Below, piece after piece: positions 9,470 to 58,500 of a stretch of DNA of 64,000 bases. The stretch covers positions 1,056,001-1,120,000 of the forward strand of contig CAXXOU010000004.1 of the NCBI GenBank assembly GCA_963677495.2, written 5' to 3'. Both the position numbers and the translations under genes were made by a program. The DNA comes from Candidatus Cloacimonadales bacterium. GTDB lineage: Bacteria; Cloacimonadota; Cloacimonadia; Cloacimonadales; JAFGVF01. Each line of letters starts with the position of its first letter. Positions within the stretch are counted from its first letter, which is position 1. The notes under the pieces are model-generated. The model was not told the DNA's origin and made no database searches. It saw nothing but the letters and a program-made list of their open reading frames with translations.

Positions 9470-10210
9470 GTATCTCTACTTCGCTCAGGGTGACATACAC
9501 AGTGCCATTTGCAATGACTTACCGCATTTCAGGGAGTTTGTCGGCCTGATAAGGCAACGGACTTCCTGAAATGTACTTCGAAGTCGCATGTCCCTGATTT
9601 CGTTCTCGCGTCACGCTATCGCTGCAACGCAAGTCCGAAATTAACATACACAGTGCCATTTGCAACAACTTAGCTACTTTTATTGACCTTTCCACTCTCT
9701 TTTACTGCTCTATCTATCAACGCACTGTGCACGCACTGTGTCCCCACTGTGAAGGCACTGCCAACCCACTGTTTCACTGGGTGCACAGTGGGAAAACAGT
9801 GGGATGACTGCGATTTGCTGGATGGTTTAGTGAAAGCGAGAAGCAATACTACCTTGAAAATGGTCCTAAGACCTTTTCAATGGTGCTCTTGTAATGTAAA
9901 CCGATCCACTCTTGGTTGATTGAACCAGACCAAAAACCATTTATACGACCCCTTCTGGGTCGGATTTTTGTTGTATATCTAACCATAGGCTGCACCTATG
10001 GCTAATTAAACTTATACCTCTTTGAGGTAGGCATTATTCCAGCAACGCAATTCCGAGTTGTGTAACAAGACAAACCGACACAGTCGGTTAAGTCCATATA
10101 TGAACGCATCAACTGCGTAGATGCAACTGCAAGATGACTAAGGAAGAAGTGATTCGCAACGAAGTGTGAATCGCTAATTCCAGGAACTCGAAGTCTGATT
10201 CGTATTTCTC
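9470..10210. repeat. Mosaic of REP-like hairpin modules in the secA/skp divergent intergenic region
   Basis: Modules recur elsewhere: 9599-9638 ~ 33211, 33845, 58203(rc); 9851-9886 ~ 33716, 55073; 10069-10098 ~ 41574; 10106-10200 ~ 33119; local direct repeat ACATACACAGTGCCATTTGCAA at 9494 and 9645. Confidence 0.8.
9723..9801. repeat. 11-bp periodic inverted array (core CACTG/CAGTG)
   Basis: CACTG at 9723, 9734, 9745, 9756, 9767; CAGTG at 9786, 9797. Confidence 0.9.
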
Positions 10211-10498
10211 ATCCAAAAAGAGCATTCTCTATCAATTTTAGAATAACTGTTATATGATGATTTATAAATTATATACCATCTATTACCTAAAGTACTTTCT
10301 CTAACAATGTTCTCAAACTAATACATATCAATAAGAATACTAGCTGACATTGTAATTCTTAAACAAACATATTGGTCTTAAGATTGATACCGACTTTAGA
10401 ACGGTCTTATATATACATATAAAGTGTTGATATTTTTGTTTGACTAATTAGTCTTACTCCTAAAACTTGCGAAAATGTATTAAAATAGTGGAGGACTA

Positions 10499-11077
10499 AT
10501 GAAAAAATTAGTATTGATGCTGGTCTTAACAACTCTGTTAACGGTTGGCTTAGTAGCAAAATCTCAAGAGATAGCATATGTAGATATAGACGCAGTTATC
10601 ACACGTTGTAATGACACACAAGAAATCCAAAGAGCTTTTGATTTAGAACGCCAAGAGTGGGCAAATCAACTTACTGACCTTGAAAATGAAATTACAAGAA
10701 TGGAAACAGATTTCGAAACTCACAAACTTACTTACAGTGCTTCAGGACGTTCTGAACAGGAAAAGAAGATTGAAGATAAGAAAGCTGAATACAGAACAAT
10801 GGTTGAAAACTTCTTTGGTGAGAATGGAATTGCAGCTCAGAGATATCAGGAACTTGTAGAACCAGTTCAAAACAAGATTCTTGAAGTGATTCAAGACATT
10901 TCTATCCAGGAAAACTATTCATTAGTACTTAACGTTAGCGCCGGTGGCATACTTTATGCTACTCAAGAGATGGACATCACTGACATGGTTATCCAGAGAA
11001 TGGATGCTGATAGTGGTCAGATTGCTCCTGCTGCTACTGATGTACCTAAAGCTGATGACAAAGGCGGAAAGAAATAG
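10499..11077 (+). CDS. skp: OmpH/Skp periplasmic chaperone
   Basis: Signal peptide, IAYVD, coiled coil, ILYA...DITD; directly upstream of lpxD. Confidence 0.88.
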   Translation: MKKLVLMLVLTTLLTVGLVAKSQEIAYVDIDAVITRCNDTQEIQRAFDLERQEWANQLTDLENEITRMETDFETHKLTYSASGRSEQEKKIEDKKAEYRTMVENFFGENGIAAQRYQELVEPVQNKILEVIQDISIQENYSLVLNVSAGGILYATQEMDITDMVIQRMDADSGQIAPAATDVPKADDKGGKK

Positions 11078-12121
11078 ATGAAGAAATTCAGGCTTGAGAT
11101 TACACCGGAACTTATAGCTTCCCAACTTCCGGGGGAGTTGATACAGCGTAATGAAGTAACTTTGGATAATGTTGCTGAGCTCTTAGAAGCTAATGGTAAT
11201 TCTGTATGTTTTTTTGAGAATGATGCCTTTGCTTCTGACTTAAAAGTGACAAAAGCCGGACTTGTATTTGTTAAACAGGATTTTGATGTATCTATCCTTC
11301 CAAATACAAACCTGCTTAAAGTTGAGTATCCTTATGTCTATTTCATGATGTTAGTAAAAACATGGTTAAAACTCAGTAAGCCTGACTTCATGACTTCTAT
11401 TAGCGAAACAGCAGTTATTGCTAACTCTGCCAAGATCTCTGATAAAGTAGTTATTAAAGAGAATGTAGTGATTGGGCAAAATGTTGTAATAGATGACTAC
11501 ACAGTCATAGAAGCAAATTGCGTTATTATGGATGATGTGCAGATTGGTAAAAACTGTCACCTCTTCCCCAACGTGACAATCTATCAGGACTCAGTTTTGA
11601 TGAATGATGTTATTCTTCATGCCGGAGTTGTGATAGGTGCAGATGGATTTGGATATATTTATCACGAAGGTATTCAACAGAAAGTTCCACAAGTTGGAAA
11701 CGTGATTATCGAAGATAGTGTTGAAATTGGTGCTAATAGTTGTATTGACCGTGGAGCACTTGGAACCACACGAATCGGTAAACACACAAAGTTAGATAAC
11801 CTTGTTCAGGTTGGGCATAACGTACAGATTGGAGAAAATACTATGTTATGTTCACAAGTTGGCATTGCAGGTAGCACGAAAGTCGGTGACTTAGTGTATC
11901 TTGCAGGTCAAGTTGGAGTTGCTGATCATATCAGCATTGGTAATAATGTGAAAGTCGGAGCAAAATCGGGCATATCCGGAAATGTTGATAACGATAAGCT
12001 TATGTTCGGCATACCGGCCCGTGAATCCGGGGTAACTAAGAGAATTATGGCTTCACAACGTTACTTGCCTGAGTTAGTGAAATATTATAAAAAAGAACTG
12101 AAGAAAAAAGATAAAGAGTAG
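11078..12121 (+). CDS. lpxD: UDP-3-O-acylglucosamine N-acyltransferase
   Basis: Hexapeptide repeats, [24 protein letters not shown]. Confidence 0.96.
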
Positions 12122-12125
12122 TTTT

Positions 12126-13520
12126 ATGCAAGAACACAAACAAACAATCGGTGGGTCAATATCTTATACAGGTATTGGACTTCACACCGGAGAGATAACA
12201 ACTGTAACTTTTAAACCAGCTTCTCAGGATGATGGTATTGTATTCACAAGAATAGACATGCCAGACTCCCCTGAGATTCCCGCAGACATTGAACATGTTG
12301 TAGATATATCACGCGGTACTACTATTGGTATCGGTAAGGCGACTGTTTCTACAATTGAGCACGTTTTAGCTGCTATTAAAGGTCTTGATATTGATAATAT
12401 TAAAATCGAGATTAACGGACCTGAAGCACCTGTTGCTGATGGCTCAGCCATGCCTTTCCTTCAACTTCTTAAGCAAGTTGGAATAGTACAGCAGGATTCA
12501 ATTAGAGAATACTTTGAAATAGAGGAGCCTATCAGCTTCACGGCAGAAGAAGATAATGTAGATGTAGTGATTGTACCTTCAAGTGAACTTAAGGTTACTT
12601 TCCTCGTTGATTATCAGCACCCACTTCTTGGTACTCAATATACATGGATGCCTGATCTTAGTGTGTTTGAAAAAGAGTTTGCATCTTCAAGAACATTCTG
12701 CTTCGTGAAAGAGATTCTTATGCTCAAAGGTGCCGGACTCATCAAAGGTGGTTCCCTTGATAATGCTGTTGTTATCGGAGAACCGGATATTGACCCTGAA
12801 AAACTGGAAGAGCTCAGACAAGTATTCAACTTTGACGCTCCTATAGAGATTTCAAGTGAAGGTATTATCAACAACCAACCACTTCGTTATTACAACGAGT
12901 TTGTACGTCATAAAGTATTAGACCTTATTGGTGATATTGCCCTTCTCGGTGTGCCAATTAAGGGTCATATCCTAGCTGCTCGTTCAGGACATAAGACTAA
13001 TGTAGAGCTTGTTAAGAAACTTAGAAAGATTCAGAAGAAGCAACGTTTACAGAAAGAGTATCAGAAGAAGAGAACACAAAATGTAGTGTTTGATATCAAT
13101 GCGATAAAGCGAATACTACCTCATAGATACCCATTCCTATTCGTTGATAAGATTATTGAGTTTATCCCTGGTGAAAAGATTATCGGTATCAAGAACGTTA
13201 CAGCTAACGAAGAGTTCTTTAATGGTCATTTCCCGGGTGCTCCTGTAATGCCGGGTGTACTTATAATTGAAGCTATGGCTCAAACCGGTGGTATTATGCT
13301 TCTCAATAACCTTGAGAACCCACAAGACCACCTTGCAATGTTTGCTTCGATTGATAACGTTAAGTTTAGAAAACCTGTTTTACCGGGTGATACATTACGC
13401 TTTGAATTGAAAGTAATTTCACTCAAACGCTCATTAACCAAAATGCATGGTGACGCTTTTGTGGGTGACACAAAGGTATGTGAAGGCGACTTCCTCGCCA
13501 TGGTTGTAGATAGAAACTAA
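12126..13520 (+). CDS. lpxC-fabZ: Bifunctional LpxC/FabZ
   Basis: GIGLHTG, TIEH, HKVLDLIGD (LpxC) then LPHRYPFL, FNGHFPGAPVMPGVLIIEAMAQ (FabZ). Confidence 0.96.
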   Translation: MQEHKQTIGGSISYTGIGLHTGEITTVTFKPASQDDGIVFTRIDMPDSPEIPADIEHVVDISRGTTIGIGKATVSTIEHVLAAIKGLDIDNIKIEINGPEAPVADGSAMPFLQLLKQVGIVQQDSIREYFEIEEPISFTAEEDNVDVVIVPSSELKVTFLVDYQHPLLGTQYTWMPDLSVFEKEFASSRTFCFVKEILMLKGAGLIKGGSLDNAVVIGEPDIDPEKLEELRQVFNFDAPIEISSEGIINNQPLRYYNEFVRHKVLDLIGDIALLGVPIKGHILAARSGHKTNVELVKKLRKIQKKQRLQKEYQKKRTQNVVFDINAIKRILPHRYPFLFVDKIIEFIPGEKIIGIKNVTANEEFFNGHFPGAPVMPGVLIIEAMAQTGGIMLLNNLENPQDHLAMFASIDNVKFRKPVLPGDTLRFELKVISLKRSLTKMHGDAFVGDTKVCEGDFLAMVVDRN

Positions 13521-13529
13521 AGGAGAGTC

Positions 13530-14303
13530 ATGAATTACACAGTTCATCCTACTGCTATAGTTGATAAAGACGCGAAGATTGGAGAAGGTTGCAATATAGG
13601 TCCATATTGTATTATCGGACCTGATGTTGTGATGGGAAAGAATAACAACCTGCATTCACATGTGATTGTAAACGGTCCATCAGAAATGGGAGATGGAAAC
13701 AATGTATCTCCCTATGCTGTTATTGGTACCGACCCACAAGATCTTAAGTTCGACGGTTCTAAAACATACCTTAAGATTGGAGACAACAACAATATCAGAG
13801 AGTACGCCACTATCAACCGTTCAAACGGTCCTGAAGAAGCTACTGTTGTTGGTGATAATAACCTGATTATGGCCTATGCTCATATCGCTCATAATTGCCA
13901 GATTGGTAACAATATTGTGATTGCTAATGCAGTTAATTTTGCCGGTCATGTGATTGTTGATGACTTTGCGATTGTTGGCGGTGTAACTGCCGTTCATCAG
14001 TTCGTGAAGATTGGTAAGTATGCCTTCATCGGTGGTTGTTCTGCTGTTAAGAAAGATATTCCACCATTTGTAAGAGGACAAGGTAACCTCTTCGAAGTAC
14101 ACGGCTTAAACGGTGTTGGTCTTCTTAGAAAAGGCTTCTCCAAAGAGGAAGTATCAGGTCTTAAGAAAGTTTATAAACTATATTACAGAATGAATCTTAA
14201 TACTGCTCAAGCAACTGCTGAAGCTGAGAAGTTAGATCTTAGTGATGTTCAAAAAGAATTTGTAAACTTCGTAAAGAACTCAGAACGCGGAATTACTAAA
14301 TAA
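13530..14303 (+). CDS. lpxA: Acyl-ACP--UDP-GlcNAc O-acyltransferase
   Basis: PQDLKF, IREYATINR, HIAHNC, VHQF. Confidence 0.96.
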   Translation: MNYTVHPTAIVDKDAKIGEGCNIGPYCIIGPDVVMGKNNNLHSHVIVNGPSEMGDGNNVSPYAVIGTDPQDLKFDGSKTYLKIGDNNNIREYATINRSNGPEEATVVGDNNLIMAYAHIAHNCQIGNNIVIANAVNFAGHVIVDDFAIVGGVTAVHQFVKIGKYAFIGGCSAVKKDIPPFVRGQGNLFEVHGLNGVGLLRKGFSKEEVSGLKKVYKLYYRMNLNTAQATAEAEKLDLSDVQKEFVNFVKNSERGITK

Positions 14304-14322
14304 TACTATTTTAATATACATT

Positions 14323-14354
14323 AGAGTCCTCTCATTTTGAGTGGACTCTTTTTG
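14323..14354 (+). terminator. Rho-independent terminator after lpxA
   Basis: AGAGTCC...GGACTCT hairpin followed by T run. Confidence 0.75.
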
Positions 14355-14744
14355 TATCCCGATCATCCCTGATGGGGCTCTCAGCCAAATCTGAAACAGC
14401 TGAGTTACTCATGTCAATTCTAGCTCCTGAACACGATTGGCTTCCATGTTATAGCTCTATCGAGCTATGTGCAAGCGAGGGCACTTGCACTACGATTGTA
14501 CTGCAACTCTCCTGAGTTGCTGTGCCGACATGGTCGGCAGTTTCCACTGACCGAAACTTAGAAATCATACGTTCGACCGTTGAACTAAGTTTATGATTAC
14601 ACATGACAATATTAGCTTCTGAGTAAAGATTAGAGTGGTCGCTTCATATGTATCCTGTTCCCCATCCTGATCGGTGCAACATAGATGTAAAAATGTCATT
14701 TTGCTTGACACAAAATCAGGTTAAGATTTCTTAAAAACACTCTT

Positions 14745-14820: not shown

Positions 14821-14826
14821 AGTTTT

Positions 14827-14850: not shown

Positions 14851-14939
14851 ATTATATCCACCATGTAACTGTCGCTCAAGCTCAACCATTAAGAAGGTAC
14901 ATATCACTCCAATATCGGATGAATCAAATCATTGATATC

Positions 14940-15519: not shown

Positions 15520-15592
15520 CCCTTAGATTTCTCATGCCCCACTCTCGACCCTCCCTTGCAAACCCAAGGGAGAGCCAAGGGAGGGGCAAGGG
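15520..15592. repeat. 11-bp periodic inverted array (core CCCTTG/CAAGGG)
   Basis: CCCTTA 15520, CTCATG 15531, CTCTCG 15542, CCCTTG 15553; CAAGGG 15565, 15576, 15587. Confidence 0.85.
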
Positions 15593-15635
15593 AGGCTTCT
15601 GGATTTCAGGTTGACTTCCGGCAAGGTATTTGTTC

Positions 15636-15662
15636 TGTAAAAGCTTTGTAAAAGCTTACAAA
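15636..15662. repeat. Short 11-bp periodic palindrome (TGTAAAAGCT)
   Basis: TGTAAAAGCT at 15636 and 15647, followed by TACA. Confidence 0.6.
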
Positions 15663-15765
15663 ATATGCAATTAATTATGAATGTTTCCTCGAGAGTGATA
15701 TCAATCGATCCATTCTTATCTGCTTCTACGCTCCCTTTCAATTTTTACTCAACTTTTCTGGTTAC

Positions 15766-16047: not shown

Positions 16048-16075
16048 CAAATATAACAAATCTACGATTAAACTT

Positions 16076-26984: not shown

Positions 26985-29900
26985 TTAGTTCTCCTCGAAC
27001 ATAATTAAGAAATCTTGCTTTATGGAATTAAAAGATAAAAACCTATGATTTAACTCATCACTTTCTAAGTAGCTGACGGGAATTATTTGATTTGTTAAGA
27101 ACATATACTTAAGCTTATACTCACTGACACTATCAAGAGAGAGTGAATCCCCAAGTAAATCAATATTTGCATTTAACCATTTTTCTCTTGCAGTTACTTT
27201 TTTATCCCAAGGAATAAACTTCTTTAATTCCCCATACTGTTCATATGGAGTTTTTGCAAGAATCAACTGCTTACATTCTAAGGCAATGATAAATTTTCTC
27301 TCTTTTGAGACGATGATTATATCAATATCTCCAAGATCCTTTTTAGATTTCAAAACACTTGTTGGACATATTTTCATTTCTTTTTCAACGATGAACTCAC
27401 TACTCTGATATTTACTAAGGAAATTGTAAACATCTTCATTAAAGTGCTTTCCCCTTAAATCATTTACTCTTCCGATGTACGAGATCATAGTTTTGCTTCT
27501 TGCTTTATATTTACCAAGGGTTATTGCCTCTGAAAGGTAGTACATTGAGTCTTGAAGCTCACGAGCTCCGAAACAAATCTGTTCAATTCCATTTTTATTC
27601 AACAAAATATAAGGTTTCATAAATAATGAGAACTTCCTTTTAAATCTCCATGGATGATATTCATATTGCTCATATATCCGTACATCTACATCACTGTTTT
27701 CTTGTGGCTTTAGACTAAATGCCTGAATAATTGCTTCCAATTCTTCTTGATTAAGTTCCGAATCAGTCCTTACTGACCTCTTAAAATCGTTGAAACTATT
27801 TAGATATACTGATCCTTCAAAATTAAATGCAATATCAATGGACTGGGATAGCAAATTGGTATAACTATCATAAGAAAAACCAAATTCCGATAAGAAAGCA
27901 ATCTTGAATTTTTCTTCATCAACACTTTCCTGCAATTTAAAGGGATTATATGCTTCTTTTGAGAATATGATCCTTTCCTCAAATTTATCTTTAAAATACA
28001 TTCTTTTGCTTTCTTTGTAGTCATAACTAATACCCAACCTACCAGATTTCAGCAATTTAACCCTAGGGTTATCAATATTGTAATAAATACTATCCCTAAT
28101 TGAAGCCCACTCAATAACATTTATCATATATGCAATTGCTTTGTCGAAATCTTTTTGATTAAATGTACTATCTCCGGAATAATTCATATAGATTGCTTTC
28201 TCGATAAGACATCTTATTGCTATTGAGACTTGATTGTTACCTTTGTCTTCTGAGATTAATTTATTTTTCACATCAACATCTTCAATAAAACATTCGATTT
28301 TTGATGCGAGAGACTTATTGAACCACATCCTCCTTTGAATTGATGATTCGTAATACATCAAGAATATCGAGACAACATCATTTACATCATATCTTTTCAA
28401 AATTTCTTCTAAACCATCAGTATAAAATTCAACAGCTTGTTTTAACTCTTCTAAGCAATCTTCTCTTCCTAAAATCTGTCCTTCAGCCTTTCCTACATTC
28501 CTTAACAACAATCCGAAATCATCAATTTGTGAGTTTAAATAATAACTTGGCAGTTTCACATAATCGCTTAAGTTTTCGGGACTTAGTCTACAATCATCTT
28601 GACTGTTATATAGAAAGAGCATTTTTTTTGATCCCAAAGGTAAACAACAATCTAATATACTCTGAATATTTAAAGTTACTTGAGAAAACTGCTCAAACCA
28701 TTTCATGAAATATTGGAATACTTCTGACATTATGCTTTTTTCAAATGAGTTATCTGATTTTGTAAGTCTAAGAATAAGGTATTCATCAAGCTCAATCAAT
28801 AGAGTGTTTTCTTCAAGATGGAATTTCCCAAGACAGGCAGGGGGATTTTTTTCTTCCAAACCAATGTTAGCTTTAAGACTCTTTGGTTGAAAACTGATGT
28901 TGAAGTTTAACTTATTTTCTACAGCAATCTGATCTTGATTAAATCTCTTTGATAAAGAATACATCCAGTAAGCAACGCATCTGGACAGTTCATGCATGAT
29001 TTGTTTGTTTATTGTTCCATTCTCTTTAGTTGAAAGTCTGTATTGAATAAAGACATTAACTCCTAATACTTCTGTTAGTACAAAATATGGGAGATTAGGA
29101 CTATACCAGGATGAATAGATAGGAAGAATAGATGGGTATTCAATTCTAATAACAGGGACATATATATTTTGTCCTTGGTACTTATATTGAACAAGGTGCT
29201 TATCTTGTGCATTGATTGTATCAAATTTCATGCTTAAAGCTGTACCGACTCCAACACTAATTGAACTAGAGGTGCTTTCATCCGATATATAGAAGCTGTT
29301 ATCGTTATCCAAAAACATCGCTATGTTATCAAGAATAAAAGGGGTTATGTAAGTTAATTTTTGACTTGCCTCTAAATAATTCCAAATTGAAAATTTAGTA
29401 GTAGCCTGATGTTGAAATATAATGTTTAAATCATTAAGTGCTAATATTATGCTGTCCTTAAAACCATCAATTTCCACAAAATGATCTATTGAAGATAACA
29501 ATGAGAATCCTCTACCGATACCATTGATAATGGTCAACCGGTAAATCTCATAATTATTGAAGCTCTTATCCTTTTGAAGTCCCTTAAGCAGGTTTTCTCT
29601 TCTCTTGGATATTTTTTGGGCTTCTTTTTCATCAAGTTCATGAGTATCTGTCATTATTGGATTGCATGGGTCTATCTGGGAACAATCATCGAGAATGTAT
29701 TCTAAATATAGTATTTTATTAGAATCAAAGCCAAAGATGCCATCCATAACAGGCAATTTTGTGGATGAAATTTGATAATCTTGAAGCGCATATCCTTTAT
29801 TCTGAAGAAGTTGAACTATCCTCTTCCAAGAATGTTGTTCATATAAATCTTTTACTGAGTGCAGAAATCCTAGTCGTATAGCATTATACCAAATATTGTT

Positions 29901-30785
29901 TAAACAAGCATAAATAATTGTTGTTGGACCAATAAGAATATAATAATTCCCTTTTTTTACTATTGGTCGTTGTAAAATGGGATTTGTAAAATTGTCATCA
30001 TTCTGTAAGAGTGGATTACCTAAATCTAAAACAAAATCATCAATCCATTCATTTTTAAATTCATAATCATTAAAGATTGAACTAATGACTTCTTTAGTAA
30101 GGATTAATTGTTTGCTTAACTCGATCAAAGTGATATTTTCAGGAATAGTAATTGCCCGATCAAGTTCATATTCTACAAACATATTTCTACTATGCTTCAT
30201 AGATTTAGCTAAATAGTTAGATATCGATAATAAAAGATATGTAGGTCCTAGAATCGATAGTTTTATTTCTTGTGTTAGACAACTTTTATCACGGAATATG
30301 GAATCTATCAATTGTTGTAGTATAAGTACCTGTCCTTCTGCGATACCTGTGTACACAATTCTATTACCAAAAGGAGTCATAATATTCTCTGTAAAAAGAT
30401 TTTCAGGTGGATCCTCAAGATGGTGTGATGGAAAATTTTTATGAATGATTTCTCTTAACTCATTAGAGCTAATTTTTTTGAGAGCTCCTTTATCGGATAT
30501 AAGTGCTTGCCGAGTAATTTCTTCTAATCTAATATTTTTGCTATGATTCTTAGGAGTTATATGTAGAATGCTAAGCTTTGAAAGCAAATCAACATTATCG
30601 TAAGTTGAGAAAAAACCTGTAACATCTTTAATTTCAGACTGAATTAAATCTTCTTCATATCTGTTGAAAGCTTCATCTATGTCATTCTTTAGTATAAAAG
30701 ACTGGCAATTTACAAGGCAACAATATTTATACTTTTTTCCGCTACCACATGGGCATTTTTCATTTCGACCAACTGTTTTTGTCAT
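26985..30785 (-). CDS. Large protein with N-terminal SEC-C motif and C-terminal PD-(D/E)xK nuclease-like motif
   Basis: [26 protein letters not shown]...ALECK near the C-terminus. Confidence 0.75.
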   Translation of the reverse strand: MTKTVGRNEKCPCGSGKKYKYCCLVNCQSFILKNDIDEAFNRYEEDLIQSEIKDVTGFFSTYDNVDLLSKLSILHITPKNHSKNIRLEEITRQALISDKGALKKISSNELREIIHKNFPSHHLEDPPENLFTENIMTPFGNRIVYTGIAEGQVLILQQLIDSIFRDKSCLTQEIKLSILGPTYLLLSISNYLAKSMKHSRNMFVEYELDRAITIPENITLIELSKQLILTKEVISSIFNDYEFKNEWIDDFVLDLGNPLLQNDDNFTNPILQRPIVKKGNYYILIGPTTIIYACLNNIWYNAIRLGFLHSVKDLYEQHSWKRIVQLLQNKGYALQDYQISSTKLPVMDGIFGFDSNKILYLEYILDDCSQIDPCNPIMTDTHELDEKEAQKISKRRENLLKGLQKDKSFNNYEIYRLTIINGIGRGFSLLSSIDHFVEIDGFKDSIILALNDLNIIFQHQATTKFSIWNYLEASQKLTYITPFILDNIAMFLDNDNSFYISDESTSSSISVGVGTALSMKFDTINAQDKHLVQYKYQGQNIYVPVIRIEYPSILPIYSSWYSPNLPYFVLTEVLGVNVFIQYRLSTKENGTINKQIMHELSRCVAYWMYSLSKRFNQDQIAVENKLNFNISFQPKSLKANIGLEEKNPPACLGKFHLEENTLLIELDEYLILRLTKSDNSFEKSIMSEVFQYFMKWFEQFSQVTLNIQSILDCCLPLGSKKMLFLYNSQDDCRLSPENLSDYVKLPSYYLNSQIDDFGLLLRNVGKAEGQILGREDCLEELKQAVEFYTDGLEEILKRYDVNDVVSIFLMYYESSIQRRMWFNKSLASKIECFIEDVDVKNKLISEDKGNNQVSIAIRCLIEKAIYMNYSGDSTFNQKDFDKAIAYMINVIEWASIRDSIYYNIDNPRVKLLKSGRLGISYDYKESKRMYFKDKFEERIIFSKEAYNPFKLQESVDEEKFKIAFLSEFGFSYDSYTNLLSQSIDIAFNFEGSVYLNSFNDFKRSVRTDSELNQEELEAIIQAFSLKPQENSDVDVRIYEQYEYHPWRFKRKFSLFMKPYILLNKNGIEQICFGARELQDSMYYLSEAITLGKYKARSKTMISYIGRVNDLRGKHFNEDVYNFLSKYQSSEFIVEKEMKICPTSVLKSKKDLGDIDIIIVSKERKFIIALECKQLILAKTPYEQYGELKKFIPWDKKVTAREKWLNANIDLLGDSLSLDSVSEYKLKYMFLTNQIIPVSYLESDELNHRFLSFNSIKQDFLIMFEEN

Positions 30786-33000: not shown

Positions 33001-33390
33001 TAGCCACTGATTTCTCTGATTAATCAGATGATGTGTACTCCGAAGTACACGTCGAACTATTTGTAGGGGCTCAACATTTTGAGCCCATTTTTTCGATTAT
33101 ATGAGTGCTATATGGACTGCATCAACTATGTAGATGCAACTGCAAGATAACCAAGGAAGAAGTGAATCGCAGCGGAGTGTGATTTGCTAATTCCGGTACT
33201 CAAAGCCCATTTCGTTCTCGCGTCATGCTATCACTACAACGCAAGTCCGAGTCAATTCCTCCGAATTGCACCATTTGCAAGGTCTTTGACCATTCCAAAG
33301 GTACAAGTCTAATTGTCAATAGCAGAAGCTCGAGTCCCCCTACTCCCAGCAGTAATTCTTGATTCCATAATAGTATTCTCTAAACAACAA

Positions 33391-33463
33391 CTTGATCATT
33401 TCTTGGCATTTAACCCAAGGATTACCCAAGTGTTTCTCAAGGGTTTCTCAAGTGTCTCTCAAG
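33391..33463. repeat. 11-bp periodic inverted array (core CTTG/CAAG)
   Basis: CTTG 33391, 33402; CAAG 33416, 33427, 33438, 33449, 33460. Confidence 0.9.
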
Positions 33464-34049
33464 AATTACAGCTGAGGACCAGAGGGAAAGTAGAATCAGT
33501 AGATGCTATTACTATCGCTTTTAATCTGCCCTCTCACTCCTCTGCATTAATTATTAAGTTAAACTAATCTCTATCCATTCTAAAACCGTATCCAAATCCT
33601 ATTATTCGATAATAACATTTCAATAGGGTTTCAATAGGTGTCTCTTACCTGAGGGGTTGATGATTGTAGCAGGACGGATGACCGGGGAAATGAAACTGAT
33701 GAAGGATTGCATTCTACCTTGCGAATGGTCCTTAGACCTTCTCAATGGTGCTCTTAGGAAGAAGTGAATCGCAGCGGAGTGCCTGAGAAGCCTTAGCTTC
33801 AGCGTAGGTTCTTGATTTGCTAATTCCCGGTACTCTAAGCCCGATTCGTTCTCGCGTCATGCTATCGCTACAACGCAAAGTCCAAGAAAATCCCTCCGAT
33901 TTGCACCATTTGCAAGGTCTATGACCATTCCAAAGGTACAGGATAAAGTGTCCTATACCTGAAGCTCGAGTCCAAGCGAAACATGTCAAAAAATTTATCG
34001 AGACTTGCAATTCACTGCCAAAAAGACACACTCCCACAGATAGATTTCA

Positions 34050-34120
34050 CGTACCTGAAAGGTAGCCCCTCCCGTAGCTACCTACGGGAGGGCTACGGAT
34101 GGGCTACGCGAGACCTACGG
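34050..34120. repeat. 11-bp periodic inverted array (core CGTAG/CTACG)
   Basis: CGTAC 34050, GGTAG 34061, CGTAG 34073; CTACG 34082, 34093, 34104, 34115. Confidence 0.9.
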
Positions 34121-34229
34121 GAGGGGATCGCAGGTTTGGTAAAGATTTGGAGGAAAAAAACATTCATTTATTGACATGGAAAGAATAAGTAATATGGGTG
34201 GCATAAACCGATTTCAAAAAGGGGTATAA

Positions 34230-36048
34230 ATGACTGAATTACATAAAACAGACATCTATAAATATACAAGAAAAAGCGAATATGATTTGGAATATCGCTG
34301 ATATTATACAAGGAACCTTCAAACCACATCAATATGGATTAGTTATTCTGCCTTTTACTGTTTTAAAGAGATTGAATGATACTCTTATGCCTACTAAGGA
34401 TAAGGTTTTAGAGAAATTTGAAGAGATAAAACATTTGGAAGTTAAAAGTGGCTTTTTAGAGAAAGCTTCCGGGTACTCTTTCTATAATACGAGTAAGTTT
34501 ACCTTTGAGAATCTGGTGAATGATTCTGAGAATATTGAAGATAATTTCAAAGACTTTCTTAACGGTTTTCTCTGAGAATGTGCAGGATATCCTAAAGAAC
34601 TTCGAGTTTATGGGGAACCATAAAGAAGTTGATTGGCTCAACAAAGCATGAGGGACAAGCTGTTCTATGTGATTCAGGAGTTTAATAAACCTCAGTCTTA
34701 TTTAGGTGCTGATAAAATCACAACTGTTTGACATGGGATATGTCTTTTGAAGAGCTTGTGCGTAAGTTCTCCGAGAGTTATGATGAGGATGCAGGGACAG
34801 CACTTCACGAGTAGAGATATTATTTATACTATGACAGACCTGCTGGTCGCTGAAGATGCCGATGCCCTTACTCAAGAGGGAGTTGTGAAGACTGTCTATG
34901 ATATGGCGATGGGGAAACAAGGTCAGATGCTTACCTGTATGGAGGAACGCTTACGACAATTGGATGCAGATGCAGAGATTACCTCCTTTGGACAGGAGAT
35001 AAACCACGAGACTTACTCTATTGCTAAGTCCGATGCGATTATTAAGGGAAGTTCTGCTGAGAACATGCGTCTGGGAGATACTCTTGCCAATGACCAGTTT
35101 TTGCAGGCTTTGAGTTTGATTATGTTATCTCTAACCCTCCCTTTGGAAGAGATTGGAAATCAGCGAAGAAAACTGTAGATACTGAACATAAGAAGGGCGA
35201 AGACGGAAGATTTGCTCCCGGACTACCAAAAAATATCAGATGGTCAGATGCTCTTTACGATGAATGGAATTAAGAAAACTGAAAGATTCCGGTAAGATGG
35301 CTATTATTCATAACGGCTCCCCTCTTTTTACAGGAGATGCAGGCTCAGGTCCTTCCGAGATTAGAAGGTACATAATAGAAAATGACTGGTTGGAAGCGAT
35401 TGTACAGCTACCTAATGATGTGTTTTATAATACAGGGATTAGTACCTATATTTGGGTAATCTCGAAAGAGAAACCGAGTCATAGAATTGGTAAGATCCAG
35501 CTAATCGATGCCTCCAAGATGTTTGAGAAACGCAGGAAAGTCGATTGGGAATAAACGAGTTGATATAAACAGTTGCTTGCAGAAAAGCGATTGTGCAAGC
35601 CTTTGGTGATTTCACTGATAAGCTCTATGAGTATGATAATGGTAAAACAGGTTGAATCACGCATCTTTGAGAATGAGGATTTTGGTTATTACAAGATTGT
35701 GGTGGAGTCTCCTGAACTTGATGAACAGGGCAATAAGGTTCTGAAAAAGGGGGAAACCGGTTTGCAGATACGAAGAAAAGAGACACTGAGAATGTGCCGA
35801 TGCAGAAGAGTCGTGATGAAAGAGAAGTGATTGAGGAATACTTCCAAAAAGAGGTTGTTCCCTTTAATCCCGATGCCTGGGTTGACTATAAGAAGACCAA
35901 GCTTGGTTATGAAATCCCCTTTAACCCGTCCACTTCTATAAGTATGTAGCTCCTGAACCATCTGAGAAGATAGCGGAACGCATCAGTGCTCTGGAAACAG
36001 AACTGATGGCATCTCTTAAAACCCTCTTCTCCGATGAGGAGGGAATAA
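34230..36048 (+). pseudogene. hsdM: Type I R-M methyltransferase HsdM, multiply frameshifted as written (probably sequencing error)
   Basis: Fragments across frames: IWNIAD..YGLVILPFTVLKR, GQHFTSRDII, SNPPFG (35130), IHNGSPLFTGDAGSG, FYNTGISTYIWV, KLGYEIPF. Confidence 0.88.
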
Positions 36049-37332
36049 TGCCTCGCAAGATGAAAGATAGCGGAATTGAATGGATTGGAGAGATTCCGGA
36101 AGGGTGGAGTGTTACCAGAAATAAAAACTCTGTTTCGTGAAAGAAAAGAGGTAACTGTAAATGGAGATGATGACTATGACCTTTTAGCAGTATCAGAGTA
36201 TTACGGAGTAGCTAGAAAAGCTGATGTAATAAAATCAGATGAATTTCTGACAAGAGCTAAGTCATTAACAGGATATAAGGTTTGTAGAATTAATGACTTT
36301 GCAATGAACATTATGTTAGCTTGGAAAAAAGCTTATGGGATAAGCTCTTATAATGGAATAGTTAGCCCATCATATGCTGTGTTTGAACCTACAATGAAAT
36401 ATTGTACCCAATACTATCACTACTTATATAGAACTACATTATATTCTGGTTTATTTAAAAGTAACTCTACTGGAATTATTGATTCAAGATTGAGATTGTA
36501 TCCAGATGTATTTCTTTCTCTTTCCTCGCATTATCCCCCTCTCCCTACCCAAACCCGAATAGCAGAATACTTAGATCGAAAGGTGGCATTGATAGATTCG
36601 ATAATTGAGAAGACAAAACAGACAATTGAGGAGTATAAGGCATATAAACAGTCACTGATAACTGAGGTTGTTACCAAAGGACTCAATAAAGATGCCAAGA
36701 TGAAGGACTCCGGGATTGAATGGATTGGGGAGATTCCGGAGGGGTGGGAAGTGAGAAGAACGAAGTACTTATCTCCTGTGTTAAGAGGAGCAAGCCCTCG
36801 ACCGATTCAGAGTGAGAAGTATTTCGATGTAAATGGAAGCTATGTCTGGACTCGTATAGCTGATGTCTCAAAGTGTACAAAATATTTTGATAAAGATTCT
36901 GAATATATGTCTGAACTAGGTGAAAGTAAATCAGTAAAATTGGAACCGGGAGAATTATTCCTTAGTATTTGTGCTACTGTAGGTAAACCAATTATTACTA
37001 AAGTCAAGTGTTGCATCCATGATGGTTTTGTGTACTTCCCTTTATTGAAACCCAAGTATGTGGATTTACTATTTTATATTTTTGAGAATGGTTCATGTTT
37101 CGGTGGACTTGGAAAAATGGGAACCCAGCTAAATCTTAATACAGAAACTGTAGGCGGTATTCATTTACCTATCCCAGAAGATAATGAACTAGGAAGAATA
37201 ATAAATCGATGTGAACGGATTAGTATTGATATCTTAGAAATTATCGAAAAGAAGATGAGATTTATCACAGAGCTTGAGAGTTATAAGAAGTCACTTATAT
37301 ATGAAGTGGTAACAGGTAAGAAAGAGGTGTAG
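36048..37332 (+). CDS. hsdS: Type I R-M specificity subunit; true start ATG 36048 with one +1 frameshift near 36120
   Basis: MKDSGIEWIGEIPEGW occurs at 36060 (different frame) and again mid-protein; two TRDs; KSLIYEVVTGK end. Confidence 0.9.
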
Positions 37333-48893: not shown

Positions 48894-49028
48894 TAAATAA
48901 AAGTCCACCTTGTGTGGGCTTTTTTATAACTATTACTTTTGCTAAATAAAAGTCCACCTTGTGTGGGCTTTTTTTATAACTACCACTTTGGTGAATAAGT
49001 AAAAAGTCCACTTTCTAGTGGACTTTTC
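48894..49028. terminator. Three tandem bidirectional terminator hairpins
   Basis: AAAAGTCCAC...GTGG(G/A)CTTTT at 48899, 48948, 49002. Confidence 0.8.
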
Positions 49029-53150: not shown

Positions 53151-53198
53151 TCCTGAATTACTTTTGGATGTTACGTTATTACTTTTTCAGATAAAGAC

Positions 53199-53669
53199 CT
53201 AATTCCTTTCCATAGGTGGTCTTCTCTGACCTCTCATCTGTTTACGTTGATTCTCCCGTTGCTCTTTCTGTAGACGTTTGTATTTCTTTATCTGCTTTTT
53301 GGTTAGATGTTTATAGATTCTCTTATCTGTTTTCTCGATAATCTTCTTCATCTTTTTCATAGCAGACATCATTGTTTTACGATCAGAATCTCGCTCTGGT
53401 CTGTACTGTTGAATCAACTCTAATCGTTCTTTCACGATTGGTCGGATTGATTTAATCTGGTTTGGCGTTAGTTTGAGTTCCTCAGTGTACTTAATCATCT
53501 GACGATTCGTTCTCTCAATAATACGTGCTTCCGGATCTTCACTTCCACCCTGTTCAAGTCTTCCCTCTGGACGACCTTGTGGTCTCTCACTAATATTTTG
53601 TGGCGTATCCTGAGCAAACATGGACATAACTGTCATCAATACAACTGCCAGTAATAAAATCTTCTTCAT
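53199..53669 (-). CDS. Periplasmic Spy/CpxP-like (LTxxQ) protein
   Basis: GGAGG RBS before ATG 53669; signal peptide; LKLTPNQ and LTKKQ motifs. Confidence 0.7.
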   Translation of the reverse strand: MKKILLLAVVLMTVMSMFAQDTPQNISERPQGRPEGRLEQGGSEDPEARIIERTNRQMIKYTEELKLTPNQIKSIRPIVKERLELIQQYRPERDSDRKTMMSAMKKMKKIIEKTDKRIYKHLTKKQIKKYKRLQKEQRENQRKQMRGQRRPPMERN

Positions 53670-53967
53670 AATTCCTCCACTCACGTTTCTACTAATAATA
53701 ACAAGCTTCTGTTGATTATCCTGCATTAAAAGTTCCAATTGAACATTATTAGTTCTCTGCACAGTCTCACTCCCCTATCATAATTCGGTACCGATTCTGA
53801 TGAGTCTCTTGGGGATCCCCGGGTAAAAACTGCATTTTGCTAACAAGAGATGGATACGAGAGAGGGTAGTATTTGATATTTATAGTTCACTAATTATGAT
53901 AGAGCAATGAGAGTGAAGTAAGATTGGAGTGGATTAACTAAACTAGTTAATATCTTCTTTGAGAAAA

Positions 53968-54531
53968 CTATCCTAGCTGCTTATACCTAAAGCAATCAGT
54001 TGTATGATCATTCACCATGCCGGTTGCTTGCATGAAAGAATAGCAGATAGTTGGGCCTACAAAATTCATACCACGTTTCTTTAGGTCTTTGCTAAGTTTT
54101 TCAGCTAACTCTGTTTTAACCGGAAGCTCTGAGAGTGATTTCCATGAATTTTGTATAGGCTTGTCATCAACAAATCCCCAGAAATATTTATCCAAAGAAC
54201 CAAACTCCTTGATAATATCTAAAGCAGCTTTAGCATTCCTGATAGTTGAATCGATCTTCCGCCGATTTCTAACAATCCCTGCATTAGATAATAATCGTTC
54301 TTTATCTTTATCGGTATAGTCTGCTATCTTATAAAAGTCAAAGTTATCAAATGCTTTTCGGTAGTTATCACGCTTCTTAAGGATAGTTATCCAACTTAGT
54401 CCGGCTTGCGCTCCTTCCAGTATGAGGAATTCAAAGAGTAGCCTGTCATCATGTACAGGTGTTCCCCATTCTTTATCGTGATAATAAATATATATAGGGT
54501 CATCACCACACCATTCACATCTTTTCTTCAT
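53968..54531 (-). CDS. tag: DNA-3-methyladenine glycosylase I
   Basis: RCEW, YHDKEWG, LEGAQAGLSW, FVGPTI, NDH...C. Confidence 0.96.
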   Translation of the reverse strand: MKKRCEWCGDDPIYIYYHDKEWGTPVHDDRLLFEFLILEGAQAGLSWITILKKRDNYRKAFDNFDFYKIADYTDKDKERLLSNAGIVRNRRKIDSTIRNAKAALDIIKEFGSLDKYFWGFVDDKPIQNSWKSLSELPVKTELAEKLSKDLKKRGMNFVGPTICYSFMQATGMVNDHTTDCFRYKQLG

Positions 54532-54533
54532 AT

Positions 54534-54950
54534 TTACTCACCAATAATCTTAACTAAAACTCGTTTCTTACGTTTTCCATCAAACTCCCCATAGAAGATC
54601 TGTTCCCATGGTCCAAAGTCTAACTCACCATTCGTAATTGCTACAACCACTTCCCTACCCATGATTGTCCGTTTAAGATGAGCATCACCATTATCTTCAT
54701 ACCCATTATGATGATATCTGGAATAAGGTTTCTCAGGTGCTAGTCCCTCCAACCAGTTCTCAAAGTCCTGATGAAGACCCGGTTCATTGTCATTTATGAA
54801 AACCGAAGCAGTTATATGCATAGCATTTACGAGGCAAAAACCTTCTTTAATCCCACTTTCTCTTAAACAACCCTCTACATCTCTGGTTATATTAATAAAA
54901 TCTCTTCTTCGGTCTGTTTTGAACCATAACTCTTTTCTATAGCTTTTCAT
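54534..54950 (-). CDS. yjbQ: YjbQ/UPF0047 family protein
   Basis: [25 protein letters not shown]. Confidence 0.92.
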
Positions 54951-55069
54951 TATATCTCCTTATTTCTCAATATCTCTAAGAAATAAACATATTGTAAAGA
55001 AGTTTCCAAGGAGTTATTCATACTCATCACAAATAGGGTTTGAACGTAGATGTGTCTCGTCACGAAACA

Positions 55070-55625
55070 AAGACCTTCGGAATGGTCGTTAGACCTTGCG
55101 AATGGTTGTACTTCGAAGATAAATCAATTGACCAGGGGTGGATCAATTTACATTACAGGAGCATCATTGAGAAAGTCTGTATACAACTATTATTGCCACT
55201 TTTCGCATTTCCCCATACTCCTATTAAGTCGTACAGGTGACTGCTTCCCAATTCCGGTCACCTGTGCGAGTATCGAGCTTGGGGAAATGGAATTGAATTA
55301 GCAAGGACTCGTGCTTTGTTTGTTTTATGCTAACCCTGAAAGGGTTACATATGAGTAGCCCCGAATGCAATTCGGGGTAGCGAATTACACACAGGAATCG
55401 ACAACTCCAACGGAGTTGAATTTATGTATTTATGCCAAATTCGACCCCATTGGGGTCGTTGTTTTCTAGGATTTACAACTATGCATTGATACATAGCTAC
55501 TCACATTTAATCACTCAGTGATTAGTCCTACCTCTGCCTACTTTCATACAAGCTCGCGTCCAAAGGAGTTTGCGACTTCGACGCCAAGCTATGGAGTGCA
55601 CCAACTACGTAGGTGCGTTTTGTCA
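55070..55625. repeat. Mosaic of REP-like hairpin modules
   Basis: AACCCTGAAAGGGTT, CCCCGAATGCAATTCGGGG, ACTCCAACGGAGT hairpins; 55439-55573 ~ 58366-58500; 55250-55294 ~ 26748 and 58306. Confidence 0.85.
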
Positions 55626-55694
55626 CACAACTATAATTTGCCATGTCACGCTATTCACCCAACTCCCATTCGGTCGCTATGGTGCCAGCTTAAG

Positions 55695-57929
55695 CTATTT
55701 CATCAATATCATCTTCTTAGTCTTTGTATAAGTCCCAGCCTGTAGCTTATAGAAATAAATCCCTGAAGCTACTTTAACTCCATTATCATCATCACCATCC
55801 CAGATAATACTATGTTCTCCGGATGGCATCTCTTCGTTTACTAATGTCTTAATTCTTTGCCCTTTGATGTTGAATACTGCTAGCTTGATGTTTCCTCTTC
55901 TGGGGATACTATAGTTTATCGTTGTAGTTGGATTGAATGGGTTAGGATAGTTAGATATTTTATACGTAGAACTTAGTAAGTAATCATTGTCGATGCCAAC
56001 AGGATTCCATTCATGACAACCAATATCTATTTGCCCTCCATATATTCGTGGATGACCAGTTAGGTCAAACTCTGGAAGTTCAACACCTTCCGGCATAACT
56101 AGAGTTCCATTATCAATTGCAGGGGATAGTGAAGACAGAAAGTAGTATCCTTCACTAACATCCCATAAAGGATTGTCATTCATATTGTTTTCTTGCCAAT
56201 CGACAAAGCTCTGACCAATATGTGCGATATTCCCCTCTCCTCCCTGAATTATTGAGTTTCTTACGAACAATGATTCCTGATAAGTTTGATTATTCATCAC
56301 TATTTGATATAGTGTATTCCCATATAATATTGAGTTAACAATGTTCAATTTAGATACTGTAGCAACAGATATAGCAGCTCCCCAGAATGAATCAGCACTA
56401 TTATTTGCTATTGTTGAATTAATTAAATTACATCTTGCAGGTGTAGGGTAGTTTCCGGAAGATATTGTTAACCCGACACCACTAGTATTCCATTCAGAAT
56501 ATGTTTCTATATTATTAACTACCTCAGTGTTCACAATATTCATCAAACTACCGTTATATGTGTTTAAAACAATACTGGAATAACTGAAGACATCTGGTGA
56601 GGAGTATTCAACATTATCATATATTCTGGTGTTTGATATTGAAGAATCGTCACAATAATGAAATTTTAATGCACCCCATGAACTGCAATCATGAATTCTT
56701 AAATTGTTTACATCACCACTACTATATATCATGTAAACAGGTTCTCGAGAACCCATATAGTTAGATAAATCAACATTGTCGATCTCGAAATCTATCGCAT
56801 GGTGGAGGTGGATTCCTTGAGTGTCATAACCATTTATTAGTGATAAGTTTCTAATCCCAACATTTCTATCACGATAGGTCGATCGAAAGAAACCTGTAAT
56901 AGATTCAGCATCAAGTATCGTACCGGTATCTGATTCACCAATAATACTTACATTATCCTTTAATTGGATCGGAAAAATCTGTTGATTTAGGCTTTCAGAA
57001 TAGACACCATCTTCAACATGTACTGTTCGATGTGTTAAACTATCTGAATCTACTTTTAACATTGCATATGCTATCGTTTTTAGGGGAGAACTAGGTGATT
57101 CACCACTATTATTGTCATTACCTGTTGTTGAAACATATATGTCAGATGCAACTTCGTCAACCACATGATTCTGTATCATGAACTCGAACCTGCTTTCTAA
57201 AGGGAACATAGGTTCAGAGTATCCGTCTGTTGGGAAAGCATGGTAAATTGTTGGATTTACTACAGTAAAAGTATCAACATATACTGTCTGAGTGGGGCAA
57301 TTAGGAGTACTAAACAAGTCGTTCCCTGTTCCAGCATAATTAAGATATACACTATTAATATTTGATGCTCCAAAGCTGACATTTGAATCACATAAATAGA
57401 AACCACCACCAAAAGTACTAGCAATATTCTTTTTTACGGTAGTATTTCCAAGACTCAAAAATGAGCTATCAAGTAGAATCCCACCACCATAATCTGCTCT
57501 ATTATTCTTTATTACACAATTAAAAACCCTAATACTTGAATCCTCAGCTCTAATTCCTCCACCTACAAAACATAAGAAATCAAAAGTACCTGAACCATTT
57601 CTAATTGTAAACCCTTCGATTTGAATCCAGTTAGTATCGATTATGTTGATTACGCTTCCGGTTCTGTTCCCATCAAGTACAGTATTCGCAATATCCATAG
57701 GATCATGAGACTCATGAAAATCACTGATAATTGTTATATCTTTCTCTGTAACAGTAAGATTCTCATAATACACTCCAGGATGCACTAAGATAGTATCGTA
57801 ATTGTTCGCAGAATCAATAGCATCTTGGATTGTAGTATAATCTCCTGTTCCATCTTCAAAAATTTCGATTACCACACAAAACATCTTGTTAACAAATAGA
57901 ATCATTAATAGAGCAAAGTTGATTTTCAT
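55695..57929 (-). CDS. Secreted beta-helix (pectin-lyase-like/DUF1565) protein with C-terminal sorting domain
   Basis: YTTIQDAID..VHPGVYYE, YVSTTGNDNNSG..PLKTI, NYPNPFNPTTTI...SGIYFYKL...KKMILMK; AGGAG before ATG 57929. Confidence 0.85.
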   Translation of the reverse strand: MKINFALLMILFVNKMFCVVIEIFEDGTGDYTTIQDAIDSANNYDTILVHPGVYYENLTVTEKDITIISDFHESHDPMDIANTVLDGNRTGSVINIIDTNWIQIEGFTIRNGSGTFDFLCFVGGGIRAEDSSIRVFNCVIKNNRADYGGGILLDSSFLSLGNTTVKKNIASTFGGGFYLCDSNVSFGASNINSVYLNYAGTGNDLFSTPNCPTQTVYVDTFTVVNPTIYHAFPTDGYSEPMFPLESRFEFMIQNHVVDEVASDIYVSTTGNDNNSGESPSSPLKTIAYAMLKVDSDSLTHRTVHVEDGVYSESLNQQIFPIQLKDNVSIIGESDTGTILDAESITGFFRSTYRDRNVGIRNLSLINGYDTQGIHLHHAIDFEIDNVDLSNYMGSREPVYMIYSSGDVNNLRIHDCSSWGALKFHYCDDSSISNTRIYDNVEYSSPDVFSYSSIVLNTYNGSLMNIVNTEVVNNIETYSEWNTSGVGLTISSGNYPTPARCNLINSTIANNSADSFWGAAISVATVSKLNIVNSILYGNTLYQIVMNNQTYQESLFVRNSIIQGGEGNIAHIGQSFVDWQENNMNDNPLWDVSEGYYFLSSLSPAIDNGTLVMPEGVELPEFDLTGHPRIYGGQIDIGCHEWNPVGIDNDYLLSSTYKISNYPNPFNPTTTINYSIPRRGNIKLAVFNIKGQRIKTLVNEEMPSGEHSIIWDGDDDNGVKVASGIYFYKLQAGTYTKTKKMILMK

Positions 57930-58019
57930 ATAACTCCTTACATATACCGAATATGTTATTTGTAATAAGCATATTTGGTTTGTCAAATGGTTTATCTAAT
58001 TGCCATTTGTTTGTTTGCG

Positions 58020-58500
58020 AAACCCTCGGCTTTCAATATATCACTTACATCCTTACAGGGCTCTCTAATTTTGGGGATTATTTACCCTACACTCACGTAT
58101 AGGGCTATTAAACAGTAGCTCCTTCCGAGCTAAAACCTAGTAATCATCTGTACCTTTTGAATGGTCCAGATCTTCAGAAGAGTGCACTTCGAAGGAACTA
58201 ACTCAGACTTGCGTTGCAGCGTTAGCGTGGTGCAAGAACGAAACAGACTTCGAGTACAGGAATTCGACCTGCACCACAACGAAGTGTGGGGCGGGAATAA
58301 ATCACAATTCCTGTCACCTTGTGAGTTTACGAGCTTAGGGAAATGGAATTGTCTGTTTATGTCATATTCTACCCCGTTTGGGTCGTTGTTTTTTGGGGAT
58401 TTACAACTATGCATTGCATACATAGCTACTCACATTTAATCACTCTGTGATTATTCCTGCTTCTTCCCACTTTCACAAGCTCGCGTCCATTGGAGTTTGC
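58020..58500. repeat. Mosaic of REP-like hairpin modules
   Basis: Reverse copy of 9599/33211 module at 58203-58242; copies of 55073, 55250 and 55439 modules. Confidence 0.85.

Follow-up and report, generated by a model that had tools for sequence, protein, structure and literature searches.

We analysed a 64,000-nucleotide stretch (G000:C4:1056001-1120000; hereafter the window) of the genome of a Candidatus Cloacimonadales bacterium, in which a short repeat made of two similar half-units (the module) and arrays of 11-bp periodicity occur between genes. Our results show that the module folds into a single hairpin of 15 bp, in which two T's are bulged and a free central triplet is complementary between the halves. 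The genes that it flanks, here and in relatives, make it very probable that an HUH/RAYT-type enzyme recognises this hairpin (RAYT, REP-associated tyrosine transposase; REP, repetitive extragenic palindromic sequence). The explanation that we consider likely as a whole is that the module belongs to the REP-type elements and has a dedicated Y1/HUH tyrosine transposase, similar to RAYT or TnpA-REP, and that the arrays are unrelated, genus-restricted dispersed elements, which share repeat-rich intergenic islands with the module doublets.

The half-unit ACCTTnnnAATGGT matches the window 13 times with at most one mismatch, compared with 1.55 expected matches, and 13 was reached in none of 100 shuffles. 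In the whole genome carrying the window (G000), 119 exact doubles were found, and a relaxed search (≤2 mismatches, loops to 14 nt) returned 173 copies and none in a reversed-genome control; a profile search with nhmmer returned 197 copies in 109 loci. The module is intergenic, with 166 of the 173 copies outside the open reading frames (ORFs) called by a crude ORF caller. Two subtypes, named y and z in this analysis, differ in their tails (RCTCTTG and RCACTTCG, respectively). Six copies had been located by a first-pass annotation of the window, and all were recovered at their positions, five as intact doubles and one, at 58152, in a decayed state. The window thus contains the following hairpins and half-units, some of them arranged like the REPINs (REP doublets forming hairpins) and BIMEs (bacterial interspersed mosaic elements) of other bacteria:

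9851-9884, + strand: twin-bulge REP-like hairpin of the y subtype (triplets GAA/TTC, tail GCTCTTG), solitary; -9.2 kcal/mol, z-score -6.2
14885-14898, - strand: solitary half-unit, 3' of a tRNA gene
33270-33302, - strand: twin-bulge hairpin of the z subtype (TGG/GCA), solitary
33716-33749, + strand: y hairpin of a y/z inverted doublet (REPIN/BIME-like), partner at 33905-33937
33905-33937, - strand: z hairpin of the doublet with 33716-33749
55073-55106, + strand: z-type hairpin whose inverted partner is a decayed y half; arrays absent within 450 bp
55163-55176, - strand: remnant of the second half of a decayed y hairpin, inverted relative to its partner at 55073 (read by eye, no tool score)
58152-58183, + strand: decayed z hairpin with a degenerate second half, long stem lost; z-score -0.07

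The module had been described as a double hairpin, which proved to be wrong. The two triplets, one in each half, are reverse complements with 0 or 1 mismatch in 116 of 119 copies, and the 25 triplet types contain 19 mismatches in total, compared with a mean of 50 and a minimum of 36 in shuffles; the module therefore folds as one 15-bp hairpin and not as two. A covariation test on 19 hand-picked aligned copies gave the long-stem model 95% paired cells and 25 compensatory cells, which was matched by none of 500 shuffles. The two-hairpin fold showed no covariation in the same alignment and was rejected. Over the 36 triplet types of 140 metagenome and viral copies, 34 mismatches were counted (shuffle mean 70), five of these types being direct repeats. 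The long stem is also predicted for five of the six window copies (z-scores -3.6 to -6.2), the decayed copy at 58152 being the one that fails. Read along the DNA, the module is a direct repeat of a near-palindrome, and because each arm is itself a near-palindrome, the folded stem of 15 pairs is two-fold symmetric.

A T is present at both bulges in 119 of 122 copies, and the two strands of the stem are not equivalent. On the top strand, G-T pairs outnumber A-C pairs by 38 to 3 in 76 distinct copies of this genome, by 11 to 1 in 25 copies from relatives and by 30 to 15 in 112 metagenome copies. We infer that the ACCTT-first strand is the recognised one. A tolerance of G-T wobbles on one strand also favours a different explanation, in which the hairpin now acts mainly as an RNA element (a terminator, an mRNA-stabilising or a protein-binding stem) or as a site for a host protein, and its link to a transposase is historical. 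The intergenic location of the copies points in the same direction, as do the orientation of the gene on the 5' side of y modules, which is directed into the module in 36 of 52 cases, and the persistence of modules in genomes where no cognate gene was detected. However, folded single-stranded DNA would account for the wobble asymmetry just as well, the stem is not followed by a U-tract in the copies, and in an Rfam search no family matched the module, the only hits in the window being two tRNAs. Moreover, as described below, the sequence is constant in four families of the phylum, and the type of hairpin tracks the transposase clade. An RNA function is thus improbable as the main one, although it is compatible with a REP-type element as a secondary role.

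We then turned to the Y1 transposase genes of the genome, since the first-pass annotation had guessed that the module is a recognition or nicking site of an HUH/RAYT-type enzyme. An initial scan of genome contigs with a single protein gave nothing. Among 14 matches to PF01797 (Y1), two genes carry modules on both flanks, namely L008 on contig C2 and L009, which lies ∼7 kb to the left of the window, while no module copy was found within 700 bp of the other 12. L008 and L009 encode proteins of 172 aa each that are 56% identical, contain the motifs NHYH, FE and YIHxNP, and end ∼50 residues past the NP motif; H55-Y56-H57 and Y115-I-H-x-N-P are invariant across our alignment (A1). An AlphaFold model built from four sequences (pLDDT 73) matches the structure of IS608 TnpA (2a6o) and that of E. 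coli TnpA-REP (4er8; E 6e-5, root-mean-square deviation 3.0). The genome also contains five divergent Y1 paralogues (L003-L007) with the YxxxQxxHH motif of subclass 1.2, the flanks of which lack the module.

The same layout is found in relatives. Among 28 relative loci, the module flanks seven of the eight closest (43-100% identity) and none of the 20 others. When 80 loci from all genomes were examined, it was found beside L100, L102 and L104, and others have either a symmetric form that lacks the extra T or other cores built on the same nested design. Outside the window genome, the layout with the module was thus seen at L024, L025, L026, L028, L042, L100, L102 and L104. A generic detector of the nested design was positive at 29 of 105 loci and at none of 210 shuffled flanks. 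All our phylogenies are quick trees; in one of them, the ten module-flanked proteins fall within a 12-row group with a support of 97. Across the phylum, the module occurs in 42 of 177 genomes, a close homologue of the transposase in 21 and both in 18, so that 18 of the 21 genomes with a close homologue carry the module compared with 24 of the 156 without one, related genomes not being independent in this count. It is the sequence of the module, not its structure alone, that is fixed across four families of the phylum. When hairpin types were mapped on the transposase tree, four label changes were counted compared with a mean of 20 after shuffling (own labels, 10 of 49 rows unlabelled, quick tree). 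Because of the two-sided flanking, the same layout in relatives and the pairing of sister hairpins with sister transposase clades, the RAYT guess is supported.

Other bulged hairpins lie on both flanks of the genes in the sister clades L027, L335-L337, L345, L346 and L348; L101, L330 and L331; and L103, L341 and L349, and some of these Cloacimonadota hairpins form long tandem arrays. Symmetric forms (ACCTT-n3-AAGGT twice) adjoin genes from Bacteroidota, Ignavibacteriota and Lentisphaerota. The module was also seen on two viral contigs in IMG/VR (L307 and L308).

A long stem, extrahelical T's and strand asymmetry are likewise the outline of the attC sites of integrons, and a hairpin with two extrahelical T's and unequal strands recalls them. 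The module could accordingly be an attC-like folded recombination site for a tyrosine recombinase. Only two PF00589 matches are present in the genome, both more than 10 kb from any module; single-gene cassettes are not delimited by the modules as they are by integron attC sites, the attC core consensus is absent, and the genes that are flanked are of the Y1 type. We regard this origin as very improbable.

The arrangement of the modules resembles that of known REP elements. Of 73 adjacent module pairs, 43 face each other 3' to 3', and 35 of these 43 combine a y and a z subtype, with spacers mostly near 36, 70 or 103 bp; a tandem array of 17 modules adjoins L008. Inverted doublets of alternating subtypes and tandem arrays are the arrangement described for REPINs and BIMEs in two studies (PMC8266576; PMC6006769). 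The 155-bp spacer of the 33716/33905 doublet in the window contains further dispersed repeats. No replication-strand bias of y or z was evident by eye in 100-kb bins. Contigs of one sample match the window nearly letter for letter, and their joints mostly resemble other repeat copies. At the 9851 site, the comparison with the relative G001 was uninformative because a different gene lies upstream of ompH in that genome.

The 11-bp arrays behave as separate repeats. With a detector threshold of 18 of 24, 305 arrays with a lag of 11 were found genome-wide, compared with at most 11 at any lag of 7-10 or 12-16. They fall into some ten dispersed families, each with a constant core (67, 33, 32, 32, 21, 20 and 13 copies, among others; 46 unassigned) and constant flanks, and two families that were inspected closely have terminal inverted repeats of their own. 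Within the window, array elements fold back or close by inverted repeats at 9640-9815, 15520-15670, 33344-33478, 34070-34125 and 62930-63050. In a comparison of 41 genomes, the two array elements that were tested occurred in this genus only. No dedicated mobiliser family was found among 350 of 2419 called genes that lie within 400 bp of arrays, barring IS21- and IS3-type insertion sequences (IS), which appear to be insertions into repeats.

Several features of individual array families were recorded in addition. Two families (e.g., at G000:C1:331700-331830, and the TAGGGAGG family) have TTATCCACA boxes, which we take to be DnaA boxes, as an inverted pair beside the array. Of 154 perfect strand matches to TTATCCACA in the genome, 82 are within 60 bp of an array, and the distance from box to array unit is 22 bp, i.e., two periods, in a by-eye reading of the consensus. 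The CACGAGAGG element is ∼190 bp long with inverted-repeat ends of ∼30 bp. In all six copies of a 1.4-kb IS3-like element (G000:C2:359505, C3:93495, C2:142625, C2:235206, C4:221018 and C4:1237849), the first ORF starts 44-72 bp from a CCAAG-family array, the end of the array element being constant; a target preference of this element for CCAAG-family arrays is possible.

The first-pass annotation had proposed that four of the window copies have an array 50-110 bp away, always on the 5' side of the module and each with a different core, as if the module were the constant end of a mobile unit and the array a variable payload moved or generated by a RAYT or another recombinase. The array features that bear on this proposal (unstranded) are:

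9640-9815: 11-bp array element of the CACTGTG family, which has 67 arrays genome-wide, six of them with a module within 300 bp
33344-33478: CCAAG-family 11-bp array element (array at 33408-33467) with its own inverted repeat of ∼18 bp
33618-33650: short 11-bp array of 2-3 units, 5' of the y hairpin at 33716; under the threshold of the genome-wide detector
34070-34125: CTACGGG 11-bp array, 5' of the z hairpin at 33905
58608-58656: TAACGGG-family array, ∼425 bp 3' of the 58152 module, a counter-example to the 5' rule

The four 5'-side arrays are indeed present and lie 39, ∼106, ∼66-78 and ∼133-145 bp from their modules. Around four other arrays of the window (15564, 15804, 31601 and 62950), 300 bp on either side are free of modules. 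The cores belong to the dispersed families described above, with up to 67 copies. Over all 173 modules, arrays within 150 bp are on the 5' side in 16 cases and on the 3' side in two, while within 300 bp there are 23 on either side. Single modules have the array 5' in five cases and 3' in 15, whereas at multi-module loci it is 5' in 24 of 24. The short-range 5' bias arises because the 5' ends of inward-facing doublets point outward and because one composite of array, linker, y and z is present in eight copies, which gives eight junctions with one shared linker; this composite was amplified as a unit. After shared linkers were collapsed, 29 independent junctions remained, 16 on the 5' and 13 on the 3' side (p 0.71); the 5' rule was not confirmed beyond the window and was rejected as a general one.

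Proximity as such is close to the intergenic null. An array lies within 300 bp at 33 of 100 module loci, compared with 26.7 or 31.8 under two intergenic nulls, and without the composite family the count is 21 compared with 24.5 or 29.2. With more sensitive detection, 41 of 109 module loci are near an array, compared with 30-36 under the nulls (p 0.01 and 0.13), an excess that is inflated by the eight-copy composite. Seen from the arrays, a module is to be found at a distance of up to 300 bp in only 41 of 285 cases. Arrays at doublets do lean to the y end, by 33 to 11 in raw counts and by 21 to 8 after collapsing (p 0.024), in a post hoc test that counted lone z modules as having lost their y. 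Free space was considered as a cause and rejected: the distance to the next ORF shows no significant difference between the ends (medians of 385 bp at y and 205 bp at z, p 0.59, 48 loci) and so does not account for the lean.

The two features also part across genomes, and modules outside this genus occur without arrays. No array was found at 30 overlapping module loci of G012 and G024 or at five of other relatives, and one of 140 metagenome modules has an array. Conversely, one of 13 array loci in relatives from this genus has a module (L312, ∼230 bp from the array). The sister genome G001 has arrays (six matches in 100 kb sampled), 28 matches to one array element and two exact modules, and no cognate gene was found in it by protein or family search, 10 of its 13 Y1 loci having been inspected. 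A constant end with a variable payload is favoured by the 5' arrays beside the four window copies, the composite with its shared linker, the y-end lean, the consistent orientation of arrays within some families and the array near the upstream doublet of L009, one of the two cognate genes. Against this stand the 244 of 285 arrays without a module within 300 bp, the null-like proximity and balanced sides of the independent junctions, and the separation of the two features across genomes. In addition, nine of 25 other frequent intergenic words adjoin arrays in 67-100% of their copies, mostly on one side, and represent the arrays' own flanks. As a general rule the payload model is largely refuted, and we hold it to be unlikely.

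Apart from the y-end lean, several other observations weigh against our explanation that the module is a REP-type element with a dedicated transposase and that the arrays are unrelated. The three proteins scored against the NCBIfam model NF047646 reached 37.7, 41.1 and 44.8 bits, below its cut-off of 80, and a PDB sequence search gave no matches. At 24 further loci of the phylum (E≤1e-24), the module flanks only four genes, three of them on both sides, and mostly sister repeats lie in the flanks of the others; the genome-level co-occurrence therefore overstates specificity. The AATGGT label alone changes 3-4 times on the quick trees, and some genomes in which no cognate gene was detected retain modules (for instance 42 copies in G140 and two in G001). 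A search for empty and filled sites gave five loose candidates among 100 loci, none with sharp ends, and public contigs of the same strain contained no clean empty-site/filled-site pair.

Other repeats and genes of the region may be noted briefly. Around the module, several additional families of dispersed palindromic repeats make up mosaics at 9480-9640, 10110-10210, 33120-33250, 55200-55700 and 58200-58500 of the window, and dozens of such families with 10-56 copies each occur genome-wide. G000 carries 17 IS21-type copies (e.g., C4:1494223, C4:699174 and C4:1307270), many of which lie in or next to intergenic repeats; an array element is interrupted by some of them, and others are located within module clusters. 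At 34231-36130, a type I hsdM gene is apparently distributed over three ORFs. Same-strain short-read contigs differ from this region in many single-base gaps but in no substitution, so that assembly errors are the probable cause of the breaks. Directly 3' of a tRNA gene, a 49-bp unit with a terminator-like hairpin is duplicated (48894-48989), and a 1266-aa ORF at 26985-30785 on the - strand has an N-terminal SEC-C motif as its sole Pfam match.

How the module might spread can be proposed by analogy. According to PMC8266576, E. coli TnpA-REP binds one folded strand, needs a bulge in the stem and cuts at a CT 5' or 3' of the hairpin. By extension from E. coli TnpA-REP, the enzyme encoded by L008 or L009 is predicted to bind the folded ACCTT-first strand, and the bulged T's would let it tell this strand from its complement. 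Its tyrosine would then nick nearby single-stranded DNA and re-ligate it, so that doublets spread. The eight-copy composite may have arisen from a single chance junction of an array and a doublet that was subsequently amplified. TnpA-REP of E. coli is a monomer and IS200 TnpA a dimer; as a guess, the symmetric site could point to an enzyme dimer here.

Compared with the E. coli system of REPtrons, REPINs or BIMEs and TnpA-REP (REP subtypes y, z1 and z2; group 2, or subclass 2.2), the elements share the flanking inverted doublets, two subtypes that alternate in doublets and tandem arrays, more than 100 intergenic copies and an imperfect stem that marks one strand. The layout of a REPtron is thus present, with a high-copy intergenic palindrome, two-sided flanking of a Y1 gene, intact HuH and Tyr motifs and a TnpA fold. 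Unlike E. coli REPs, which are described with a 5' GT[AG]G tag and an AA/GC mismatch, the module is a tandem of near-palindromes with two single-T bulges and no such tag. None of 119 5' flanks is GTAG or GTGG, the tag that characterises subclasses 2.2, 2.4, 2.5, 2.7 and 2.8; the flanks read CTGT (24), TTCT (18), CAGT (11) and others. The proteins differ as well, with motifs of the subclass 2.1 type and scores below the NCBIfam RAYT cut-off.

Subclass 2.1 (RAYT group 1, or TIRYT, named after terminal inverted repeats, TIRs) is described in PMC6006769 by the motifs NH[YF]H, FQ or W[EQ] and Y[IV]HLNP; by a reading of motifs only, L008 and L009 fit in NHYH, have FE instead of FQ, and carry YIHxNP. 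In that study, by Quentin et al., subclass 2.1 genes have no REP-like sequence nearby, and their proteins have a median length of 238 aa and a C-terminal helix-turn-helix (HTH); a second study reports that the 16-mers flanking group 1 genes have a mean of only 12 copies (PMC5581495). In contrast, L008 and L009 have 172 aa, lack an HTH or DnaA_C-like C-terminal extension and are accompanied by a hairpin family of 100-200 copies. Dimers and clusters of TIR repeats are reported by Di Nocera et al., whose legend to Figure 9 mentions 'double palindromic TIRs', which lie next to some genes of this kind (PMC3733652). The TIR motif GGGGWSAS is not found in the module; these double palindromic TIRs may overlap with it. 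The 'atypical' Bacteroidetes REPs of subclass 2.6 (RAYT group 5) are similar in being untagged gene-flanking hairpins, with proteins of ∼180 aa and YIHxNP, and the symmetric sister form has its inner AAGGT-loop-ACCTT stem in common with one Flexibacter entry; nested double palindromes and bulged T's are absent from the 2.6 rows of the supplement that were compared, and subclass 2.6 has NH[LIV]H and WQ where L008 and L009 have NHYH and FE (PMC6006769). With IS200/IS605 TnpA (IS608, ISDra2), finally, the enzymes share the fold and would share the recognition of an imperfect single-stranded hairpin, whereas they have Y-x3-NP instead of Y-x3-Q, are present as two divergent copies rather than many identical ones, and have hairpins dispersed far from the gene.

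In the literature searched, mostly open text without figures or full supplements, no account of this hairpin or of REPs in Cloacimonadota was found. Apparently undescribed so far, the module and its enzyme form a REP/RAYT variant that lacks a GTAG tag and is two-fold symmetric, in a transposase lineage which resembles subclass 2.1 and was reported to be REP-less. A more far-reaching and tentative idea is that it represents a distinct REPtron class of a subclass-2.1-like Y1 lineage, in which a two-fold symmetric site of tandem near-palindromes would be read in both halves by a dimer and the bulged T's would replace the GTAG tag as the strand marker. Its forms, from symmetric to bulged (Cloacimonadota), would have diversified together with the enzymes, and neighbouring DNA might occasionally be carried along, for instance the array element with DnaA boxes in the eight-copy composite.

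RAYT recognition and REP spread have been worked out only for the GTAG-tagged groups 2 and 3 (PMC8266576), and subclass 2.1/group 1 is the largest RAYT-like group, reported without REPs (PMC6006769). Our findings extend this known class, mainly for specialists in mobile DNA, and present neither a new type of system nor support for a mechanism that moves arrays. For the subclass-2.1-like type, a small enzyme of 172 aa with a sharply defined hairpin supported by covariation is now available, and a natural series of variant pairs of enzyme and hairpin allows direct tests of recognition without a tag, of the choice of strand and of action as a monomer or a dimer.

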